Positions 10,688 to 41,119 of a DNA stretch of 42,843 bases are shown piece by piece. A program made the translations under genes and the position numbers. This stretch comes from Minisyncoccota bacterium (GTDB taxonomy: Bacteria; Patescibacteriota; Minisyncoccia; Phycocordibacterales; JABAAK01): assembly GCA_965204115.1 (NCBI GenBank), contig OZ241963.1, positions 76,632 to 119,474 on the forward strand. Reading direction: 5' to 3'. The number at the start of each line of letters is the position of its first letter. Position 1 is the first letter of the stretch. The notes below the pieces were generated by a model. That model saw only the letters and a program-made list of their open reading frames with translations, was not told the origin of the DNA and did no database searches.

Positions 10688-11593
10688 TTAATTTCTTATG
10701 AACTCAAAAGTGGCGATGGGGATTGACGGCGGGTTTCTGAGCCTGCTGATCGGCTCCTTCGGATCTGTATCGTCATTAGCAGAGGTGAATTCGGGTCCGC
10801 TGTCAGTGCCGGCATCGTAGAGTGCGGCGGGAACGCTCACCCGCTCTAACCACCTGCCATTTTTGTAGAGCTCTACATTGCGCGCGGCGATAAACCAATC
10901 CGGGCTGGGGGCGATCATGGAAACAACGGTGATGTATGGGACATTTCTTGCCATAGTTATCTGTGTCGCATCCTCTCCCGGCGCATTGAAGACTCTCCCG
11001 GTACCGTGTGACAGGATGGCGCCGATGCGCGTGATGTTTTGTATTTCCTGTACTAATGTTCTTGTACCCCCGGTTTCCGCCATTATTTCCATCCCTTTAC
11101 TCGCGATCTCGTTTGACCGAAAAACTGTGTCTTTGAGGCGGTGTGACCATGCGACCATCGGTGAGATATGCGCACCCTTTGGATACCAGTTAGGATGCAA
11201 ACGCTTGCTCCAAGAAACGCCAAGACGAACCGTGTACGATATGGTAGTGTCACCGGAAAGGGTGAGAACAGCATCCGGCTGACGCAACTGCTTCTCGGGC
11301 GGCTGGTTGTCCACAAAGGTGATCGTTGCCAGGACATCTTCGTCCTCCTGCGGGCTTGGTGAGTCTGTTGGCGGTGTTTCTGCCGGTGGGGTGACTGTTT
11401 CTTGTGCTATCTCTTCCTGCTCTTCTGTTTCTTCAAACAGTGTTTCAATATCAAAATTCACCGGCTCCTGCTCCGGATCCGGCTCCTGCGACCCGGGGCT
11501 GCTTGTTGCGGAGAAAAATACCAACACACTGAGAATGATGACAATGATAATCAGCGTGGTCATATTCAGCGTGAATTTCTTTCTCACATCCAT
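10688..11593 (-). CDS. Membrane-anchored Spondin_N domain protein
   Basis: N-terminal TM and an acidic/Pro linker, then HISPMVAWSH, ASKGMEIMAETG, SMIAPSPDWF and LYDAGTDSG, typical of F-spondin/mindin domains. Confidence 0.88.
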   Translation of the reverse strand: MDVRKKFTLNMTTLIIIVIILSVLVFFSATSSPGSQEPDPEQEPVNFDIETLFEETEEQEEIAQETVTPPAETPPTDSPSPQEDEDVLATITFVDNQPPEKQLRQPDAVLTLSGDTTISYTVRLGVSWSKRLHPNWYPKGAHISPMVAWSHRLKDTVFRSNEIASKGMEIMAETGGTRTLVQEIQNITRIGAILSHGTGRVFNAPGEDATQITMARNVPYITVVSMIAPSPDWFIAARNVELYKNGRWLERVSVPAALYDAGTDSGPEFTSANDDTDPKEPISRLRNPPSIPIATFEFIRN

Positions 11594-13079: not shown

Positions 13080-14738
13080 ATGGGTGAAACAAAAAGAAAG
13101 ACGGCTAAGCAGGCAGTCAAAAAAGTTGCGCGAAAAAAGGTGGTGAAGCGGGCGACTGCCAAGCGCGCGGTTGCGAAGAAGCGTACGACAGCGAAACGGT
13201 CAGGAAGGAAGAAGGCGGGCGCGGCGAAAGGGGTTTCCATACGGCGCGTTGCTGAGAAAAAAGATGCCGCGTTGTATAGTGACGATGCGTCGGTGGTTCG
13301 GGAGATGCTCATCAGATCAGCTCCTAAGAGACGGATGAGTGTGGAGCGGTGTATGTCCGGACTCTACAGAGTTGCCAGAGCTTGCCGACCAAGGAGTGGT
13401 GCTGCTGCGGTGGGTATTTTTCTGCTCGGTGTTGTGACTACCCTGGCTGCACTGTTCGGGCTTATATATTTCAATAAAAGTGACATACTGGCGCGGCTGC
13501 TTATCGGCGCTGATACGCTGTACCTTAATGGAGTTGCGATACAGGTTGACCCGTCGTTCAGAAGATTGGTTGCTCATAATGTGCCGAGTGACTTTGAGGA
13601 TGTTAGTATGGATGATTTTTGGGAGGTTTGGCGATACCTTGAAGATTTGTATGTATCGCCGCCGGAAAAAATGACTGATGGAGTGGCGACCGAAAGGGAA
13701 GATTTGTTAGATCGGGATGCACTTCTTACCGGCGCGATTAAAGGACTTACCCGTGCGACGAAAGATCGGCATATAAACTTTTTCCTGCCGAAAGCTGCGA
13801 GTGATTTTGAAGATGAAGTGCTGAATGGTGAGATTGACGGTATCGGCGCATACCTCACTATCAACGATGATGATGTTCTCGAGGTGGCAAAGCCGATTGA
13901 CGGCGGTCCGGCCGACAAAGCGGGGTTGCGCGCAGGCGATCTCATCACGACCATTGACGGAGTGGATAGTTCGGAATACAATTTGTCCGAGGCAGCGGAT
14001 AACATTCGTGGCCCGCGCGGGACAACTGTTGTGCTGGAGATTTACCGGCCAATTCTTGAGGAGGAGTTAGAGATTCCTATTGTCAGGGCTCGTGTGGAGA
14101 TACCGACCGTTGAGACCGAAATACGAGATGGTGTGTTTGTCATATCGCTCTCAACCTTTACCAAGATCACGCCGAAAGCGTTTGGTGTGGCATTGCAGGA
14201 ATTCGCGGAAAGCGCGAACGCCGGCGGTCCGGATCGCCTTCTCCTGGATTTGCGTGGTAATATGGGCGGCATTCTCTCTGTGTCGGTGTATGTTGCCGGT
14301 ATGTTCTTGCCGGAAAATTCTGCCGTGCTCTATGAATACTCGGGTACCGAGACACTTAAAGCATACCGCACGACCAAGCCGGCATTCCAAAACGGTGTTT
14401 TGCCGAAAATGACCGTGCTCGTTGACGGCGCCACTGCTTCAGCTGCGGAGATACTTGCGGCGGCATTACGGCATTACGATATCGCTGACATCGTCGGTAG
14501 CAAAACTCTCGGCAAGGGATCGGTACAGGCAATTAAACCCGTTGGTGATAATAATGCCATTCTTAAAATTACCGTTGCTCATTGGCTCACACCGGCAAAG
14601 GAATCAATCGGGGGAGAAGGAGTTACGCCTGATGTGGATTACTCGGAGGAGTTGGAGGAGCTTTATAAGGAGGATCCGGAGACCGATATTAGTGAGGTAG
14701 AACTCAAGAAGGCAATTGAGCATTTGAAACAGCGGTAA
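13080..14738 (+). CDS. ctpA: S41 carboxyl-terminal processing protease (PDZ) with a histone-H1-like N-terminal extension
   Basis: GIGA PDZ motif, PADKAGL, LDLRGNMGG, TASAAEI and TLGKGSVQ. The first ~60 aa are K/A/R-rich, followed by a TM helix. Confidence 0.92.
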   Translation: MGETKRKTAKQAVKKVARKKVVKRATAKRAVAKKRTTAKRSGRKKAGAAKGVSIRRVAEKKDAALYSDDASVVREMLIRSAPKRRMSVERCMSGLYRVARACRPRSGAAAVGIFLLGVVTTLAALFGLIYFNKSDILARLLIGADTLYLNGVAIQVDPSFRRLVAHNVPSDFEDVSMDDFWEVWRYLEDLYVSPPEKMTDGVATEREDLLDRDALLTGAIKGLTRATKDRHINFFLPKAASDFEDEVLNGEIDGIGAYLTINDDDVLEVAKPIDGGPADKAGLRAGDLITTIDGVDSSEYNLSEAADNIRGPRGTTVVLEIYRPILEEELEIPIVRARVEIPTVETEIRDGVFVISLSTFTKITPKAFGVALQEFAESANAGGPDRLLLDLRGNMGGILSVSVYVAGMFLPENSAVLYEYSGTETLKAYRTTKPAFQNGVLPKMTVLVDGATASAAEILAAALRHYDIADIVGSKTLGKGSVQAIKPVGDNNAILKITVAHWLTPAKESIGGEGVTPDVDYSEELEELYKEDPETDISEVELKKAIEHLKQR

Positions 14739-14748
14739 AAAAAGCATC

Positions 14749-14848
14749 TTTTTCTCCAAAAAACCTTGTAAAATAAGGGATTTAGAGTTGACTTTTCTGT
14801 GTTTTTAGTGTATAATAAATCTAATCTTATTTCAAGTAGGAGGGTGTA
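14749..14848 (+). repeat. Cassette junction A: CAAAAAACC, inverted repeat and sigma70 promoter
   Basis: CAAAAAACCTTGTAAAATAAGGGATTT, then TTGACT(14788)-17 nt-TATAAT(14811). The downstream ~38 nt are homologous to 17041-17079. Confidence 0.8.
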
Positions 14849-14909
14849 CGGATTTGTATTCTGTGCGCTCTTTTTTAATTTGGTTGGAAAAAATACATGG
14901 AGGTAAATC

Positions 14910-15905
14910 ATGTATAGAGTTTTTGTTTTGTTCGGGATTCTCGTGCTGAGTTTAACGGGTGCGAGTATGGCAATGGCAGATCATGTGGTTGAGAGTGAAG
15001 TTGAGAAGTTGAGAATGCAGGTCATTAAGCTTCTTGATGAAATTAGTAAAATTCGAAATCAGGAGGTTTCTTTTGAATGGCTTGATGAAACACCCGGTTT
15101 CCGGTCTGTCTCCGGTTCTGAGATTAGTGGTTTGGACTTGGGAAATTTTGTGTACTACCGTCCGGTAGTGTGGGAAAGCGCCGGTAAAGGGAGTCCGGGT
15201 ATTTACGACCATCGTCATGGACTCCTCCTTCTCAGTAACGATGTTGAGCAAGCCGCGGTCATTTTTAATGACCGAATTATTGGTGTCAAAGACGGATCTT
15301 GTTTTTCGAGCAATTATCCGGATCCGATAGAGGCAATCAGGGTTTATGATCGTTTGTTTCCGGGAATTCACCAGAGGCGCACTGAGCCGCTTCTTGAGAA
15401 AAAAGGTTTGTTTAGGGATGAGGGTCCCGTGTACGGAGACCTGTACGACCATGTGGTCTTTCGGTTGTTTGGCCTCTATCCAAAAACAGATCATGACATC
15501 GTGATTAGGATTGGAGACACTACGATCGGTATCAGGCTTTCATCAGGTCGTCGACGGATGGAGTACCACCGAGAGGCTCGTTTGATGTTATTAGGTGGGG
15601 GTGGTATCTCTCTGCATGGGTATCCGGAGACCTTGCCGGAAGGAATTGACTATAAAGCAGTTGCCCGTACGGAAACCGATGCCCTTGGGTATCTGGTTAT
15701 CTCAGAGATTATGAGGGACATAACTCTCTTGACGCATAGAATGAACTGGGTTGACATGTCAACGGGGCTCGGAGCACCCGCAATACACTCACCCAATCTT
15801 TCTGTTGTCCCTTCGCTGGCCAGAAAGGCCGAACGGCTCTTTTTTGGGGTAAGCCCGGAAGGGAAGAAACTGACAACCTGGGGAGCGATAAAAAATCGCA
15901 AGTAA
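14910..15905 (+). CDS. Secreted hypothetical protein with C-terminal VSPEGKKLTTWGAIK tail (cassette 1)
   Basis: GGAGG RBS, signal peptide ending AMA-D, a short coiled coil and the distinctive C-terminal motif. Confidence 0.85.
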   Translation: MYRVFVLFGILVLSLTGASMAMADHVVESEVEKLRMQVIKLLDEISKIRNQEVSFEWLDETPGFRSVSGSEISGLDLGNFVYYRPVVWESAGKGSPGIYDHRHGLLLLSNDVEQAAVIFNDRIIGVKDGSCFSSNYPDPIEAIRVYDRLFPGIHQRRTEPLLEKKGLFRDEGPVYGDLYDHVVFRLFGLYPKTDHDIVIRIGDTTIGIRLSSGRRRMEYHREARLMLLGGGGISLHGYPETLPEGIDYKAVARTETDALGYLVISEIMRDITLLTHRMNWVDMSTGLGAPAIHSPNLSVVPSLARKAERLFFGVSPEGKKLTTWGAIKNRK

Positions 15906-15922
15906 AATAGCTCTCCACAACC

Positions 15923-15996
15923 AAACAAGCCAAGCGCTTTCAGTGCTTGGCTTGTTTTCTTTTTTATCCAAAAAACCTTTATAATGTGAGGGTTTT
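15923..15996 (+). repeat. Cassette junction B: hairpin/terminator, T-tract and CAAAAAACC inverted repeat
   Basis: AAACAAGCCAAGCGC-TTTCA-GTGCTTGGCTTGTTT, then TTTTTATCCAAAAAACCTTTATAATGTGAGGGTTTT. Confidence 0.8.
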
Positions 15997-16159
15997 GAGC
16001 GGGTGGACTTTGTTATATTTTATGATGTAGTAAATGGTATAATGAAGTTACTTTTATTGATAGGAAGATAAAAGAGTGTGCGTGGATATTTTTGTAATAT
16101 GTTCTTTGTAAACAGATTTTTCTTGAGTGCATAGTGTGCTCTATACATGGAGGTAAAGC

Positions 16160-16921
16160 ATGTATAAGGTTTTGGCGATTGTGATGGCATTTGTGGCAAT
16201 ACTTTTTGCTTTGGCAGGCTGTGAGAGATCTAAATCGACTCAAGACGCTGCGACTGACACGTCGGCGATTCCGGTTATTGAAGAGTCGCATTTTTATGAG
16301 AGCGATCAGCTCAGAGTGGTTCTGCCTGGAGATATAGATACGATTAAGATACTGGAGAAAGCTTCTGATGAACTTGGGAATCCTGATGTTGTTCTTCTTG
16401 AAGCTGAGAACGGAGGCGTGATTCACCGGGATCCTTCGTGGTTCTCTGAGGGACAAAAGGTCAGGTTTTTTATTATAAAAGAGATACGTTCGTGGGGCGC
16501 TGCTTCCCTCACGTTTTATTGGCTTTCTCCCGAGCACTCCCTCTCGGAGCATGTTGAGGAGTTTAAAAAACTCCCGCCGCCGGCTCTTTCCGGTTTTGAG
16601 ATCTTTAAATACGGCACTTCGATAATTGTGTTCTCTTTCGAAAGATCTAAAGAGTCAACAGAGTTTTTGGGCGTGCGGCATAAGACGCGGATTGGTACTG
16701 ATGAGTATGTTCAGGGGGCGGTTTGGTCAACCAAGTCGAATGAGTTGACTGATGGGAAAGAGGTTTGGGATGTTTTCCTCACTGACCCCTTGTCGGCCTT
16801 TGAAGATAATGTTGTATCGATATCTGCGGTCCTGATGACTGAGCTTGGGGATTACGAACTTCCTTCCGAGACGATGATGATCCCTTATGATGTGGGTAGA
16901 CCCTATAATTCTATAGAGTAA
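16160..16921 (+). CDS. Hypothetical lipoprotein (cassette 2)
   Basis: GGAGG RBS and lipobox LAGC-ER. Confidence 0.85.
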   Translation: MYKVLAIVMAFVAILFALAGCERSKSTQDAATDTSAIPVIEESHFYESDQLRVVLPGDIDTIKILEKASDELGNPDVVLLEAENGGVIHRDPSWFSEGQKVRFFIIKEIRSWGAASLTFYWLSPEHSLSEHVEEFKKLPPPALSGFEIFKYGTSIIVFSFERSKESTEFLGVRHKTRIGTDEYVQGAVWSTKSNELTDGKEVWDVFLTDPLSAFEDNVVSISAVLMTELGDYELPSETMMIPYDVGRPYNSIE

Positions 16922-16943
16922 TTGTTTCTTGCTTACATTTTAT

Positions 16944-17079
16944 AAGCCAAGCGCTTTCAGCGCTTGGCTTTTTTCATTTTTATACAAAAAACCCTTGTAA
17001 AATAAGGGTTTTTGACAGTAGACATTTATTAATTTTGTGGTATAATAAATCTATTCTTGTTTAAAGACAGGAGGGTGTA
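16944..17079 (+). repeat. Cassette junction C: hairpin/terminator, CAAAAAACCC inverted repeat and promoter
   Basis: AAGCCAAGCGC-TTTCA-GCGCTTGGCTT; AAAAACCCTT-GTAAAAT-AAGGGTTTTT; TG-G-TATAAT at 17038-17046. Confidence 0.85.
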
Positions 17080-17154
17080 TTTTTTGTTGTACCCTCATAG
17101 CAAACAATGTCACGACCCGAAAGAGGTGTGACTGCATGCCTTTAGGAGGCTAAA

Positions 17155-17826
17155 ATGCGTAATATTTTTGTTGCAATCTCGATAGCTGTGGGACTGTTTT
17201 TTGGTTTGGCGGGCTGTGATAGAGTTTCTAGTCCGCTTCAGGATAATGTTGTGACGCAAGATGATTTCAAAATCCGTCGTGGGGATCGGCTCCCTGGGTT
17301 CAGTAAGGAAATTCGTTATGGTGACGGCAACATCCTTGGTGCCTTGTCTTTGGAGTCCACAGAGGATTTTGAAGTGGAAGGTGTTAAGTTTTCTGTTTCA
17401 CTCAATCACTATGGTAGCAAGGCTGATTGGCGGAATGCTATTTTCTTCTCTGATGATGATGTTGCTATCGAGAACATTCGGTTACGGATAGTGAGTCGGG
17501 AGAGCGACCCTGCCTTAGAAGGTATTTTTTTGGATGACCGCGTGACATTCAGACCTAATGAGGATTGGAGTGAGGTTGTTGAAAGAGTAAATACTCGAGA
17601 CAGCTTTATTATTCCTGCCGGTCAGAGTATTCTTGTGATTCACGGAGACCTTGGGGTTGCGTGGGATTACCTTGCGGGTGCACATCTGCAGTTTACGCTT
17701 GATGTTGTACGTCACGCGGAAGGTGTTATTTCTGAGAAAGACTATACCGATTCCGGTGAATTTTTTTCTGAGGCACGCCGTTTTCTGGGCGTGGAAATTG
17801 TTCCTGTGCCGACTGTAGGGGAGTAA
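17155..17826 (+). CDS. Hypothetical lipoprotein (cassette 3)
   Basis: AGGAGG RBS, lipobox LAGC-DR and a beta-rich mature region. Confidence 0.85.
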   Translation: MRNIFVAISIAVGLFFGLAGCDRVSSPLQDNVVTQDDFKIRRGDRLPGFSKEIRYGDGNILGALSLESTEDFEVEGVKFSVSLNHYGSKADWRNAIFFSDDDVAIENIRLRIVSRESDPALEGIFLDDRVTFRPNEDWSEVVERVNTRDSFIIPAGQSILVIHGDLGVAWDYLAGAHLQFTLDVVRHAEGVISEKDYTDSGEFFSEARRFLGVEIVPVPTVGE

Positions 17827-17844
17827 ACGGTTTCCCCATTCCTT

Positions 17845-17894
17845 GCAGGTCACGTGCTTTTAGCATGTGGTCTGTTTTTTTATACAAAAAACCC
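17845..17894 (+). repeat. Cassette junction D: diverged hairpin plus left half-site only
   Basis: GCAGGTCACGTGCT-TTT-AGCATGTGGTCTGT, then TTTTTTATACAAAAAACCC, after which the homology stops. Confidence 0.75.
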
Positions 17895-17956
17895 GAGGAG
17901 AAAAGATGTGTACAGTGTGCTAAAAGAGGCGGAGGTGTGATAGCATATAACATATT

Positions 17957-28020: not shown

Positions 28021-28698
28021 TTAGAAAGGAACATTTTCTTGGTATTCGATCCATCCTGTTTCGTCGTCCCACTTGCGTAGGCGGGGCGGGTTTGCTGGTT
28101 TTGTGTACCCTGGAGTAAACATGAGGGCGTTGTTGTTAAGGAATCCTCCGCCTGGCGTATGCACTTCAATTCGCACTTCCACACTGTCGTATGTTTGAAT
28201 GTCCTCTAGCACCTTTTTATCAATTCCTATGTACACCACTTCAGGTGTCAAATCAGGGCTTCCTTCTACCGACAAGGTTGCGACTGTTGGTTCGTGTCCG
28301 ATGCCAACCCGTAGTGTTGATCCCACTGATACACCAGGATGTCCTTGTATTCCAAAGACCTCCATTTTTTCGTTTCGCCCAGCGTAGAACAGGCGAGTGC
28401 CGCCGAGTCCCATACCGGGTACCTGTTGTGGGGTGCTGGTTCCAATGATTTTGACTGCATCTGTATAGTGGGTTGATTCGGTAGTAGTTGTTTCCATGCG
28501 TGGCTTTGATGGAATGACATCCTGTGTTTGAGTAGTTGTTTCCATGCGTGGCTTTGATGGAATGACATCCTGTGTTTGAGTAGTTGTTTCCATGCGTGGC
28601 TTTGATGGAATGACATCCTGTGTTTGACCATATTCAGAAATTGCTAGTATTGCGATAGAAAGTCCTACTGCTAAAATGACTGTTATGATTATTTTCAT
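28021..28698 (-). CDS. Secreted/anchored hypothetical protein with a 3x16-aa tandem repeat
   Basis: Start MKIIITVIL lies 6 nt after TG-G-TACAAT; contains (QTQDVIPSKPRMETTT)x3. Confidence 0.75.
   Translation of the reverse strand: MKIIITVILAVGLSIAILAISEYGQTQDVIPSKPRMETTTQTQDVIPSKPRMETTTQTQDVIPSKPRMETTTTESTHYTDAVKIIGTSTPQQVPGMGLGGTRLFYAGRNEKMEVFGIQGHPGVSVGSTLRVGIGHEPTVATLSVEGSPDLTPEVVYIGIDKKVLEDIQTYDSVEVRIEVHTPGGGFLNNNALMFTPGYTKPANPPRLRKWDDETGWIEYQENVPF
28483..28626. repeat. Perfect 48-bp tandem repeat, 3 copies (coding VNTR)
   Basis: AGTAGTTGTTTCCATGCGTGGCTTTGATGGAATGACATCCTGTGTTTG at 28483, 28531 and 28579. Confidence 0.97.
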
Positions 28699-28821
28699 AC
28701 TTGTATTGTACCACATTGTATTAGCTATTGAAGGATTTGTGGTAGGATTTTTGTTTCAAAAAGGGTTGGGCTGTCCTGGTGCAGTGAGTGTTGTTTGAAA
28801 AAATGATAATTTAGTGTCTAT

Positions 28822-37882: not shown

Positions 37883-38036
37883 ATAATAAAGCCCGCAGAA
37901 TGAATTGCAGGTCGTTTGTCAATCTCTAATTCCTTGTGCAGTATTGTCAATATTTGACATTTTTCTTAATCTGTTTTATTATATACATAGGTATAATTTG
38001 GCATCTTAAATGAAAAAAATAAGAAGGAGATAGAAT

Positions 38037-38534
38037 ATGAAACATATTTTTTTTGTTTTTCTTGCTCTTGCGATAATAATTGTTGGGTGTGACCGTCCGC
38101 ATTCAGGAGGGTCGGTTGTCGGGCCCGTAGAGGGGAATGAGCGGTCAGGTACTTTGGTTCCTACTGTAGGAATCGAATTGATGGAGATTGATGAAAGACA
38201 GGGATGGCGGCTGTTCTTGATAGACGGCAGTTTTTTTGATGACCTTGTCGTCAGGGTACAGCTGTCATACGACAGTCCGTTTCTGGAAACAAAGACGGTT
38301 CTTGTTGTGGTGCCGTCGGGAAAGCGTGTTTCCCGACTGCAGTATAATGAGGCCGATCTTTCTGCCCTAAAGGTGCGGATTATTTCTCTTCCAAGGGAGA
38401 AGGAAATGCACCTCATGCCCGAAAGAGTGGTAGGGACAGTTGAGTCGTATATCGTTCCAAATGGGTACCCGTGGTATCAGTACGAGGTATCGCAGGGCAC
38501 CTCTTTCGTGACGCTTTCGCCCAATAACAGGTAA
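38037..38534 (+). CDS. Hypothetical lipoprotein
   Basis: AAGGAG RBS and lipobox IVGC-DR. Confidence 0.8.
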   Translation: MKHIFFVFLALAIIIVGCDRPHSGGSVVGPVEGNERSGTLVPTVGIELMEIDERQGWRLFLIDGSFFDDLVVRVQLSYDSPFLETKTVLVVVPSGKRVSRLQYNEADLSALKVRIISLPREKEMHLMPERVVGTVESYIVPNGYPWYQYEVSQGTSFVTLSPNNR

Positions 38535-38539
38535 GCAAA

Positions 38540-38575
38540 AAGGCAGGTATTTCTTCAAGAAGAAATACCTGCCTT
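38540..38575. terminator. Bidirectional terminator (17-bp inverted repeat)
   Basis: AAGGCAGGTATTTCTTC-AA-GAAGAAATACCTGCCTT between convergent genes. Confidence 0.85.
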
Positions 38576-38582
38576 AATTTTT

Positions 38583-39353
38583 TTACTTGGAAATAGTAAT
38601 TCCCAAGTAAATATTCTGCGCGCCCGATTCACGAAGATAGTTAATCTCCGGAATTAGGTGGATGCTGTGAAAGATCGGTTTTGCTCTTACCATGATGCGT
38701 AAAGTACCGCCCTGGTCCTGTGGGCTGAGTTTCTCAGCAGACCCGAGATGGAGGGCGTACTTTTTTGAGTAGGAGATATCAAGCCGGATGTGGAAAGATT
38801 CGATAAACATTCCGCCGCCAAGGTAGAGGTTCCCCTCTCTGCCGGTGGTGTAGTGACTTGTGTCTATTCCCGGAAATGCATAGATACCGGCAGAAAAACG
38901 AGGGGATGAAGACCCTGCCACAGCGGCTACTTTCATATATGCTATGTGGAAGTCGTCATCGAAAAACAGTGAATCTTCTTTGGTCAGATCACTGTGAAGG
39001 AGGGTGTATTCACTCTTCATCTCTAACGCACCGGATTCCGTGCCCCATCTTTTTTTGAATCCGAGTGTTATGGTATTCCGACCGCCGGAGTTCTTTCCAT
39101 AGTTGGTGGTCTTATTAACATAAGCTTTATACCGTGCGTAAACACCAGCGCCCGTATGGGCGATAGCAGTTCCTCCGGAGAAGACCGGTGACCCAAAATC
39201 AAGGTGTATTGACCCGGGGCCAATAAACTCCACATCTTGCCTGCCTAAAAAGATCTCTGTTTTCCAGCTTTCTAATTCTGACTCTGATTTTGAAATTTCA
39301 GCGAATGCGTTGCTGCCTGTGAGCAACATAAGGATAAGAAGTAAATACCTCAT
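38583..39353 (-). CDS. Secreted beta-strand-rich protein, possibly a beta-barrel
   Basis: AAGGAG RBS, signal peptide AFA-E, and many alternating Gly/aromatic strands. Confidence 0.75.
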   Translation of the reverse strand: MRYLLLILMLLTGSNAFAEISKSESELESWKTEIFLGRQDVEFIGPGSIHLDFGSPVFSGGTAIAHTGAGVYARYKAYVNKTTNYGKNSGGRNTITLGFKKRWGTESGALEMKSEYTLLHSDLTKEDSLFFDDDFHIAYMKVAAVAGSSSPRFSAGIYAFPGIDTSHYTTGREGNLYLGGGMFIESFHIRLDISYSKKYALHLGSAEKLSPQDQGGTLRIMVRAKPIFHSIHLIPEINYLRESGAQNIYLGITISK

Positions 39354-39551
39354 CTCTGATTCTCCTTTGTGGTTTGTGTGAGTGTATCAAATTATACATA
39401 TATATAATAAAATATATTAAACAATGTGTCAATGCTTGACATTTTGGCAGTTTTAGGGTATATTTTAAGACATTATGGCGTGTAGTTGTAAGGATTGTTA
39501 CTTTGCAATTTACACAAAATCAACTTGAAAAAATGAAAGGGAGAAAGAGCA

Positions 39552-40718
39552 ATGAAAGAAATGAGATTTTTCACCACACTCGCAATCGTCACTTTTTTAG
39601 CAATATTCACTGTGCCATCCTTTGCCGGAGTGGAGAGCATCACAACTAATGTCACACTGAAAAACAGAGCAGGAAGGGCTATAAAGAACAGTCCGGAGAG
39701 TTTTGTATATGTCAGGGAAGGCGGCAGGTTGTTTACCTTGGCCAGCCCGAAGGCCGTACACATCATCACTGATGAAGATGTGATTCGGCTGACTGAGAAT
39801 GGTCGTCCTGAAATCGTCAATCACAACGCAGATCCGCTGATGACAGAGTTGCGGGCACTCAAACTACAAGGGTACCCAAGCTTAAAGAACAGTGTCACTG
39901 ACAGAAACATAATCTCCCTGCAACGAAATGTAGGCACGGATATAAAGAAGTACGATGCCATCATTCAGGTGGGAAAAAAGAAGTGGGGCATCAAAGGAAA
40001 GTCAGTCCGCTTTTTTGTCGCCGCGAACGGTGAAGTGACCTTGGGAAATTATCCAATTCACTATGCGGACTTACCTCAATTGTTTGCTGATCTGACCGAA
40101 ACCGGAGTTGTGGACTGGAGTCCATACTTTGTGCATGGAGCACTCGACCGTGCGCATCAGGTTTTGGCCTTCGCGGAATTTTTCCGCATCCTATATCCGG
40201 AGCGCCGTTTTGAAAAAGGTGAATTCAAAAGAGAGGCTGAGTATTTGCGAATTTCGCGACCCCATACCGTCAGAGACGGGAAAAGGGTTGTGGTGACGAC
40301 AGCGCAGCATCTGATTCTCAACTCTCTGGCGAGAGGCATCGTCGGGACAAACGCATTGCGGTACCATCGTTCAGGAGAAGTAGACTTTCGGGAAGTTTAC
40401 TACGCTCACTTGTACTGCAAGTATACGACGAGTGAGTGGTGGTACCCGCAGCGGTCTAACTTAACGACCGACGAACAAGTCCAGAAATTTTTGTCGGTGT
40501 GGGAAAGGATGGCGGATCATCAGATTAAGAGGCGAATGACCTGGGCGCATGTTTCCAGAAAGTATGTGAGTATGTATGAGGCAGGCAGAGATCTACCGCT
40601 CGCTCCGCCGCTTAACGGCGAAGACAGGTTTGCAGAGTTGGAGTATTGGCCGAAAGATTTCGTGTACCCGCAGGTTGGATCTCAGATAACCACCTGGGGG
40701 AATATCAAAAGAAGATAG
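39552..40718 (+). CDS. Secreted hypothetical protein with C-terminal VYPQVGSQITTWGNIKRR tail
   Basis: Purine-rich RBS, signal peptide SFA-G, and the same terminal motif as 14910..15905. Confidence 0.85.
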   Translation: MKEMRFFTTLAIVTFLAIFTVPSFAGVESITTNVTLKNRAGRAIKNSPESFVYVREGGRLFTLASPKAVHIITDEDVIRLTENGRPEIVNHNADPLMTELRALKLQGYPSLKNSVTDRNIISLQRNVGTDIKKYDAIIQVGKKKWGIKGKSVRFFVAANGEVTLGNYPIHYADLPQLFADLTETGVVDWSPYFVHGALDRAHQVLAFAEFFRILYPERRFEKGEFKREAEYLRISRPHTVRDGKRVVVTTAQHLILNSLARGIVGTNALRYHRSGEVDFREVYYAHLYCKYTTSEWWYPQRSNLTTDEQVQKFLSVWERMADHQIKRRMTWAHVSRKYVSMYEAGRDLPLAPPLNGEDRFAELEYWPKDFVYPQVGSQITTWGNIKRR

Positions 40719-40739
40719 CAACCCATAGCACATTACTAT

Positions 40740-40766
40740 AAGCGAAGCATGTCACATGCTTCGCTT
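40740..40766 (+). terminator. Intrinsic terminator
   Basis: AAGCGAAGCATG-TCA-CATGCTTCGCTT. Confidence 0.8.
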
Positions 40767-40906
40767 ATTCTTTTGTGTAGGATATTGTTGCTGCTTGCTT
40801 CTGGTTTGTGGCGCACCTAAAGCAAAGTTGTATTTGCGAATGAGCGGTATCAGCGGTATCATACATGTAGAACTGCTGCTTTACTATCTGAGGAGGTGAG
40901 TGCTGT

Positions 40907-41119
40907 ATGCACGCATCTAGTATTGAAACACGATCGACTCTGCCTACTATTGTGCTGCGAAGAAAAAAGAAAAGGGTAAACGCCACGCGTCGGTTCACCA
41001 GACACTCTCTCGGGATGGCGTATTACCACCGACTAACGGCAGAAGGGATAGAAGACAGGTATGCGAGAAAGTATGCCATGCATAGGTATGGCACTGATCC
41101 GTGGGATTACCTGCGTTGA
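40907..41119 (+). CDS. Small basic hypothetical protein
   Basis: GAGGAGGT RBS and a downstream terminator hairpin. Confidence 0.55.
   Translation: MHASSIETRSTLPTIVLRRKKKRVNATRRFTRHSLGMAYYHRLTAEGIEDRYARKYAMHRYGTDPWDYLR

Follow-up and report, generated by a model that had tools for sequence, protein, structure and literature searches.

Two secreted proteins encoded 24 kb apart on a 42,843-nucleotide stretch of a Minisyncoccota genome (GenBank assembly GCA_965204115.1, contig OZ241963.1, positions 76,632 to 119,474; the whole stretch is called the window) end in the same short C-terminal tail, which matches a tag abundant in Poribacteria and appears to be kept by selection. The proteins, ProtA and ProtB, are orphans encoded in insertions particular to this species. 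The genome of the window, G000, is a single contig of 661,662 bp with a GC content of 49% (49.1% in the composition test) and belongs to the Patescibacteria, or candidate phyla radiation (CPR). What is new here is that accessory secreted proteins of a CPR bacterium carry the tag and that selection appears to keep it there. A literature search for this TTWG tag, as we call it, or for poribacterial C-terminal sorting signals found no description at the level of titles, with supplements outside its reach.

The first-pass annotation of this DNA had pointed to positions 15837-15905, which are the final 22 codons and the stop of ProtA, and had claimed that a second protein 24 kb away carries the same tail. 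Six-frame scans of the window and of the genome confirmed this. With the pattern T[TS]W[GAS].[ILVM][KR], exactly two matches were obtained in the window, at 15873 and 40689, each beginning 9-10 residues ahead of the stop of a plus-strand open reading frame (ORF) of 331 or 388 residues. The pattern occurred three times in the whole of G000, and only the occurrences in ProtA and ProtB were in long ORFs. From the six-frame composition, chance alone would put 0.0035 matches within the final 15 residues of 594 ORFs, and since two were seen the tails are taken to be real; the strict form TTWG.IK would be expected 0.007 times anywhere in G000. The end of ProtA reads FFGVSPEGKKLTTWGAIKNRK and that of ProtB FVYPQVGSQITTWGNIKRR, in both cases directly before the stop. 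The core of the ProtA tail, V-S-P-E-G-K-K-L-T-T-W-G-A-I-K, is a full match to the definition of the poribacterial tag. The ProtB core, V-Y-P-Q-V-G-S-Q-I-T-T-W-G-N-I-K, agrees in TTWGxIK and in V-x-P and deviates by one residue inserted before the G and by S in place of K. After the motif, ProtA ends in NRK and ProtB in RR; both ends are short and mostly basic and have no hydrophobic segment. By eye, the N-termini of both proteins are Sec-signal-like, and that of ProtA has, as judged from its sequence, a basic n-region, a hydrophobic core and an A-M-A cleavage-type site.

To place the tail, the back-translated pattern G-K-x-x-T-T-W-G-x-[ILVMF]-K was scanned over one genome per GTDB species, which gave at least 120 stretches. 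Among the 80 loci listed, 75 were titled Candidatus or uncultured Poribacteria, four "uncultured bacterium" and one a metagenome-assembled genome of Pseudomonadota; one of the "uncultured" genomes, G463, also turned up in the genome sample taken from the phylum to which the Poribacteria-titled G459 belongs. Because the scan was limited to these stretches, of which there were at least 120, the result is to be read as a strong enrichment in Poribacteria and not as exclusivity. Of the 95 instances read in frame, all but one had a stop 1-12 residues further on, and the median length of the frames was 264 residues. The consensus of the poribacterial tails was L-A-V-E-P-x-G-K-L-x-T-T-W-G-x-L-K-x-x-x followed by the stop; most often three residues followed the K of the motif, and R was the commonest residue there. 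Profile searches agreed in both directions. A tail-only profile built from the CPR proteins (A3; 11 tails, 22 positions) matched, at E <= 0.01, at least 12 ORF ends in one Poribacteria-titled genome and at least 23 in another, and at least 45, 9 and 3 in three other genomes, 150 candidates being scored in four of these five genomes. Conversely, a hidden Markov model of 94 poribacterial tails ranked ProtA first (E 0.0012) and ProtB second (E 0.0054) among 2,790 open frames of G000, the next frame having an E value of 2.6. ProtA also agrees outside the search pattern: it has the V at -4 seen in 95% of the poribacterial tails, the P at -2 seen in 51%, and three residues between the K and the stop. 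The tail of ProtA and ProtB is thus very probably the poribacterial tag, as judged from motif and profile matches, and the earlier statement that such tails abound in Poribacteria is borne out.

Some further carriers were seen in these scans. Seven stretches in viral contigs matched the tag pattern, and two of them, L181 and L184, are genuine C-terminal tails, one of which is close to those of the large poribacterial proteins in L058 and L065 (...RLKGHIGAAGK.TTTWGDLKTS...). The L181 and L184 contigs could be prophages or misfiled cellular DNA. In one poribacterial protein (L086:6621-6653, plus strand) the TTWG motif is not terminal and is followed by a 91-residue tail starting ...NYPNPFNPETW..., which we take to resemble a C-terminal sorting domain of the type IX secretion system (T9SS); this hints at a link of the tag with type IX-like sorting.

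Pfam and NCBIfam scans, which also covered the island neighbours, found no family for ProtA or ProtB at E values up to 1 or 0.1. Eight relatives of ProtA (34-59% identity) were found among 5.8 billion clusters, and a search of 1.84 billion representatives gave six clusters, adding P0012, P0013 and the fragment P0014. The two relatives of ProtB, P0011 and P0015 (28-29% identity), apparently lie on one 28.5-kb contig and both end in HKLTTWGELKK. One family member sits on a contig of 1.11 Mb. Pattern matches to the ProtA family in viral contigs (20) and in JGI metagenome contigs (159) yielded no confirmed relative. All 11 full-length members of the ProtA family carry the tail, in the form ...P-x-G-K-x-[LIVF]-T-T-W-[GA]-x-[ILT]-K plus 1-3 residues, and with the three members of the ProtB family the tail was kept in 14 of 14 full-length proteins, down to 28-34% identity. 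In the nine aligned ProtA-family sequences T322, T323, W324 and K328 are invariant and the stretch just upstream is variable. It is therefore likely that the tail is functional, i.e. that selection has maintained it in both of these orphan secreted families.

The model of ProtA has a beta-rich core (predicted local distance difference test score, pLDDT, 68; predicted template modelling score, pTM, 0.70). Residues 314-331 have a pLDDT below 50, with a possible short helix at 323-328, which points to a flexible linear motif, predicted to be disordered. No match to the ProtA model was found in the PDB with Foldseek at E <= 0.001; the top Z of a wide VIA-align search was 3.9, which is not meaningful, and the ESM Atlas gave no usable match. 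The ProtB model (pLDDT 33) was too poor for a comparison of the two folds. The first-pass annotation had called the two proteins otherwise unrelated, and this is uncertain: by BLASTP only the C-terminal 84 residues align (E 8e-4), whereas a profile-profile comparison of ProtA 112-240 with ProtB 67-169 gave a homology probability of 49% (E 1.7e-4) around the ...SLHGYP / TLGNYP block, so that unrelatedness is not established. ProtA and ProtB may be very distant paralogues, to go by this profile comparison.

A basic, flexible tail with a tryptophan could also work without any reader. A cationic Trp-containing tail might by itself bind a generic component of the envelope, such as an anionic polymer, the membrane or a glycan, and would then work in any organism that acquired it. 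The composition of the tail (K, K, K, R and K in ProtA, with one Trp), its predicted flexibility with the possible short helix, and the presence of the tag in distant lineages that have no visible machinery in common are all in keeping with such an anchor. However, the invariance of T-T-W-G and K across phyla fits a specific pocket better than a bulk property, and an anchor of this kind would be expected in many lineages. Of the 80 loci listed, however, 75 are poribacterial, and hardly any tag was seen in 700 other genomes of Patescibacteria. We regard an anchor without a reader as improbable.

The distribution in Patescibacteria was assessed in samples of genomes searched with fast filters, and the negative results hold for the genomes searched. 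In a sample of the phylum, A3 matched 63 of 401 genomes (G000 and 400 others) at E <= 1, mostly noise. A tail was counted as genuine if W-G/A-x-h-K lay within 14 residues of the stop in a frame of at least 80 residues, and among the 30 loci listed only three genomes besides G000 had one: G096, G145 and G068, all of the genus g80. In 300 other genomes of the order, five matched at E <= 0.05 and none had a genuine C-terminal tail. A pattern search of four genomes of the family f73 found one tagged ORF in G068, three in G096, one in G145 and none in G121. All three g80 genomes carry a small secreted family of their own that ends in IC.TTWGA[IL]KR, and a 722-kb contig holds the copy in G068. Carriers of the tag are few and scattered among the Patescibacteria searched, and G000 is not the sole one. 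The earlier remark that the tail is not familiar from this phylum is in line with this rarity, with none in 300 other genomes of the order and, among the matches listed, three in 400 of the phylum, all in g80. The tagged proteins of G096 include L176 (G096:C8) and L174 (G096:C7). One G096 protein, LamG-like and 255 residues long, has full-length homologues among the poribacterial tagged proteins (34-39% identity, E about 1e-39), from which it follows either that tagged genes move between phyla or that the G096 contig was mis-binned. The genomes listed among the relatives and in the phylum sample are 0.3-2.1 Mb in size.

Both genes lie in species-specific insertions. The backbone of the window consists of genes for CysS, an S41/PDZ protease, FtsEX, YchF, a Mur ligase, GroES/EL, Adk, Map, YceG, MnmA, RadC and rRNA. 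At the DNA level five genomes of the same genus match at CysS, S41, FtsEX, MnmA and rRNA, and RadC is matched in G004 only. None of them matches across about 14.9-17.9 kb, where ProtA and two lipoprotein genes (LipoA1 and LipoA2) lie, or across about 38.0-41.1 kb, which holds a lipoprotein ORF, a secreted ORF and ProtB. The gap between RadC and rRNA is 378 bp in G004, and the slot after S41 is occupied in G002 by RpoB and other core genes. Neither ProtA nor ProtB had a DNA or protein match in the same-genus genomes. A profile of ProtA had no match in 60 relatives (five of the same genus, six of the same family and 49 of the same order), and a further 400 genomes of the class gave none either. 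All three ORFs of the second insertion lack a homologue in G002.

The surroundings of ProtA are of a native type. In window positions 14749-17914, ProtA, LipoA1 and LipoA2 form three tandem cassettes in which the repeat families D2, D3, D5 and D6 recur; the cassettes have in common a terminator hairpin, a spacer, a sigma-70-like promoter and a nearly identical ribosome-binding site (RBS) and start region. LipoA1 and LipoA2 have lipobox-like N-termini (LAGC) and homologues in G002 of the same genus (41% and 33% identity), and because of these homologues ProtA is considered to sit among native-type cassettes; the two lipoproteins have no homologue in the other tail-bearing genomes. The GC content is 47.6% for ProtA and 48.5% for ProtB, and the tetranucleotide distance of the islands falls at the 89th and 57th percentile of genome windows. 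The composition of the islands is native-like and not foreign-looking.

It had been proposed that these genes were captured from a poribacterium. In 151 genomes of the Poribacteria phylum, the ProtA profile matched four genomes at five places, with only its C-terminal part and E values of about 1e-3. Three of the five places cover no more than the final 27-35 positions; the remaining two begin at 245 and 269. With the ProtB profile, no match was obtained in any of the 151 genomes. In BLASTP against 86 poribacterial tagged ORFs, ProtA aligned over 18-21 residues of the tail only (57-72% identity) and ProtB gave no alignment. With bodies that are not found in these genomes and islands that do not look foreign, the capture is not supported. 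From these comparisons the tag looks to be a module on protein bodies found nowhere else in the searches made. A milder version, in which the tag came horizontally from a Poribacteria-type donor and is now a passenger relic with no function in CPR, could draw on the LamG-like protein of G096 with its full-length poribacterial homologue, unless that contig is mis-binned. Against it, the tail was kept in 14 of 14 proteins at 28-59% identity although the adjoining upstream sequence varies; together with the missing bodies and the native-like composition, this makes a relic very unlikely.

The possibility of a chimeric contig had also been raised. If an assembly chimera or contamination had placed poribacterial DNA in the contig, the otherwise poribacterial nature of the tag would be explained at once. 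The two sequencing runs available speak to this. In run X1, a 12.2-kb contig spans 11600-15071 with zero differences; X1 is possibly the source sample and hence not independent. All 30 bins of the window are covered in both X1 and X2. Parts of the ProtA island are held on short contigs only in both runs, and the right-hand junction into FtsE is bridged by 14 letters. Run X2 contains a 3.4-kb contig at a depth of 36.7 versus about 6, which matches only window positions 15524-16230, without differences, and has unlike flanks. The matching part covers the last third of ProtA with the tag, the terminator, the head of the next cassette and 70 bases at the start of the following gene. This contig could be counted in favour of an artefact, and it suggests a related strain with recombined cassettes. 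Against an artefact stand the single 661,662-bp contig of the genome, the bridging contig of X1 with coverage of all bins, the RBS/start, spacer and terminator modules that ProtA has in common with neighbouring cassettes whose genes have G002 homologues, the native-like composition, and the failure to find the bodies in the Poribacteria searched. The worry about a chimera is not supported, and we consider an artefact hardly credible. No RNA run was among those listed for the locus.

A reader of the tag was looked for in G000. Apart from a similarity of signal peptides, no partner gene was found that is common to both islands, and none of five tail-bearing genomes (three of g80 and two of Poribacteria) holds a homologue of the four island neighbours. 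We also compared G000 with one tail-less genome (G002, same genus, 696,550 bp) and one tail-bearing genome (G068, 1,102,672 bp). Of 594 G000 ORFs, 131 had no match in G002, and eight of these were matched in G068. By eye they were RadC, a LAGLIDADG-type ORF, CTP synthase, a helicase, an SPFH-type protein, two enzymes and a C-terminal dockerin repeat, none of them a plausible reader. Neither a sortase (PF04203; control search positive in 3 of 14 named genomes) nor a YkuD domain (control search positive) was found in G000. Two carriers were counted in G000 against 3-45 matches in each of the other genomes searched, so that a large set of carriers was not found.

The CPR cell could still read the tag itself by a protein that is not recognised as a reader, and so keep ProtA and ProtB on its own surface, by analogy with a sortase that serves one or two substrates. 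The lineage-specific tagged family kept in three of three g80 species, with one copy on the 722-kb contig, the strict conservation of the tag in both orphan families, and the 131 ORFs without a G002 homologue, many of them unannotated, among which a reader could hide, are in line with this. The same-genus genomes, however, have no tagged proteins, the distribution of the four island neighbours does not follow that of the tag, the eight genes shared with G068 but not with G002 are of housekeeping types or the dockerin, and neither a sortase nor a YkuD domain was found in G000. A dedicated machine for two accessory substrates would also presumably be costly in a 662-kb genome. On balance a sorting system of the cell's own seems unlikely.

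A more local candidate is the S41/PDZ C-terminal processing protease (13080-14738), which might bind the tail as a substrate mark and trim it. It is encoded directly upstream of ProtA on the same strand, and PDZ domains of the S41 family bind C-termini. Yet the protease is conserved beside CysS in same-genus genomes that lack tagged proteins, housekeeping genes follow it in G002, ProtB lies 24 kb away, and the adjacency arises at a rearrangement junction. Since the protease is conserved in relatives without the tag, its proximity to ProtA was treated as incidental, and a role of the tail as protease mark is most improbable.

We suggest instead the following. The two tails are real and probably selected copies of a portable C-terminal tag of about 18 residues without predicted structure, V-x-P-x-G-K-x-x-T-T-W-G-x-[IL]-K, followed by 2-4 mostly basic residues and the stop. 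Poribacterial genomes each have it on dozens of exported proteins. It would serve as a short linear docking label that is bound after export by a specific receptor. The receptor would come from a second cell in which the tag system operates, a Poribacteria-type bacterium, and ProtA and ProtB would dock on the envelope of that cell. Taken whole, a selected portable tag that docks on the envelope of another cell is our best explanation, held tentatively and at somewhat less than even confidence. Docking and the receptor on another cell are the steps that this explanation would add to the observed identity, conservation, rarity in CPR and accessory location of the tag. For the tag being a docking label the chances seem about even; a specific binding partner is argued for because T-T-W-G...K is invariant across phyla. 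The receptor is placed on another cell because no reader is evident in G000 and its closest relatives have no tagged proteins, a step that we hold to be possible though doubtful. Cultivated Patescibacteria live attached to host cells, which counts in favour of it. The idea of the first-pass annotation that the tail mimics a host's sorting signal, and so may point to the host, would fit the accessory location of the genes, the strictness with which the tail is conserved and the failure to find a candidate reader in G000.

Several points weigh on the other side. A periplasmic reader that acts during export could not serve a protein arriving from outside. The tagged family of g80 could equally mean that some CPR possess a reader of their own. 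Since the island composition is native-like, the genes are not recent imports. The holders of the 12 other family members were not found among the 400 genomes of the class, the 60 relatives or the 151 Poribacteria genomes. Lastly, the profile comparison made to find a reader is weak, since it set a single tail-less genome (G002) against a single tail-bearing one (G068).

In its boldest form, the explanation would make the TTWG tag an interspecies address code: the CPR bacterium would live on Poribacteria-type cells and secrete two cassette-encoded proteins bearing the export tag of the host, which the tag receptor of the host would then hold on its envelope. This is rather unlikely on what the sequences offer, and the same trick may be in use in g80 and in the two tag-carrying contigs of the viral collection. 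To our knowledge the hosts of almost all CPR bacteria are unknown and no sequence feature that predicts a host is known. If true, the tag would be the first pointer, taken from sequence only, from an uncultured CPR genome to the phylum of its host. A phylum-restricted tag on accessory secreted proteins of a CPR bacterium gives a concrete and falsifiable host hypothesis that names the cells to look for, and the tag peptide could be used as bait for finding its receptor. Should the host reading fail, the tag would still be portable across very distant phyla and selected on orphan proteins, which limits the possible readers.

Table 1. Features of the tagged genes and their islands (positions in the window).
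Feature	Position	Strand	Basis or remark
ProtA, orphan secreted protein, 331 residues, tag carrier	14910..15905	+	ORF, family searches
ProtA predicted Sec signal peptide MYRVFVLFGILVLSLTGASMAMA, then DH	14910..14978	+	read from sequence
ProtA C-terminal tag VSPEGKKLTTWGAIKNRK and stop	15849..15905	+	pattern scan; rank 1 with HMM of poribacterial tails
ProtA cassette, sigma-70-like promoter TTGACT-17-TATAAT, 11/12	14788..14816	+	within repeated head module (D2, D5, D6)
ProtA intrinsic terminator	15923..15957	+	hairpin recurs after next cassette (D3, 75% identical)
Two lipoprotein cassettes, LipoA1 (16160-16921) and LipoA2 (17155-17826)	16160..17826	+	head and terminator modules in common with ProtA
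ProtB, orphan secreted protein, 388 residues, tag carrier	39552..40718	+	ORF, family searches
ProtB C-terminal tag VYPQVGSQITTWGNIKRR and stop	40662..40718	+	pattern scan; rank 2 with HMM of poribacterial tails
ProtB sigma-70-like promoter TTGACA-17-TATATT, 11/12	39436..39464	+	sequence
ProtB intrinsic terminator	40738..40768	+	sequence
Species-specific insertion: lipoprotein ORF 38037-38534, secreted ORF 38583-39353 (minus), ProtB	37883..41100		same-genus comparison

Other features were seen in passing. A minus-strand ORF of the window (28021-28716) encodes a signal-peptide protein without a family, and three perfect head-to-tail copies with a spacing of 48 nt lie inside it at 28483-28627. 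A Spondin_N domain protein (E 3e-35) is encoded on the minus strand at 10688-11593 and has a 58%-identical paralogue at genome positions 382487-383032. Outside the window, G000:C1:504915-507116 encodes a 733-residue protein that by eye is FG-GAP-repeat-like with a dockerin-like repeat at its end; only the dockerin part of it matches G068 (49% over 47 residues).

Among known C-terminal signals, LPXTG/sortase, PEP-CTERM/exosortase and GlyGly-CTERM/rhombosortase resemble the TTWG tag in that a short C-terminal motif with a basic end is found on many unrelated exported proteins, and differ from it by the transmembrane helix between motif and basic end, which the tag does not have. An LPXTG signal was rejected because no hydrophobic stretch follows the motif and PF04203 was not found in G000. 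A PEP-CTERM signal (TIGR02595-type) was rejected for the lack of a model match and of a transmembrane segment; exosortase itself was not searched for. The C-terminal domain of the T9SS (TIGR04183 type) is likewise a C-terminal address on diverse exported proteins in bacteria of the FCB (Fibrobacteres-Chlorobi-Bacteroidetes) type. It is, however, a folded beta-sandwich of about 80-100 residues, in contrast to a tag of about 18 residues that is predicted to be disordered, and the tail of 18 residues, with a pLDDT below 50 and no Pfam or NCBIfam model match, was not assigned to it. In Braun lipoprotein, a C-terminal lysine is joined to peptidoglycan by YkuD L,D-transpeptidases; this protein has, like the tagged ones, a K/R-rich C-terminus on an exported protein. 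The invariant Lys of the tag lies 3-4 residues from the end and is not terminal, and no YkuD was found in G000. The closest comparison is with the poribacterial TTWG tag itself. The setting differs: Patescibacteria have small genomes and are not known to have an outer membrane, and G000 has two carriers against at least 12 and at least 23 in two Poribacteria-titled genomes. The carriers in G000 are orphans, in contrast to the LamG-type proteins of about 260 residues that are common among the poribacterial ones, and ProtB has the one-residue insertion before G and lacks the K. The motif and its spacing, its place 2-3 residues ahead of the stop with basic residues in between, and the absence of a hydrophobic segment after the motif are the same in both; the poribacterial carriers have signal peptides, and the N-termini of ProtA and ProtB look, by eye, like such signals.

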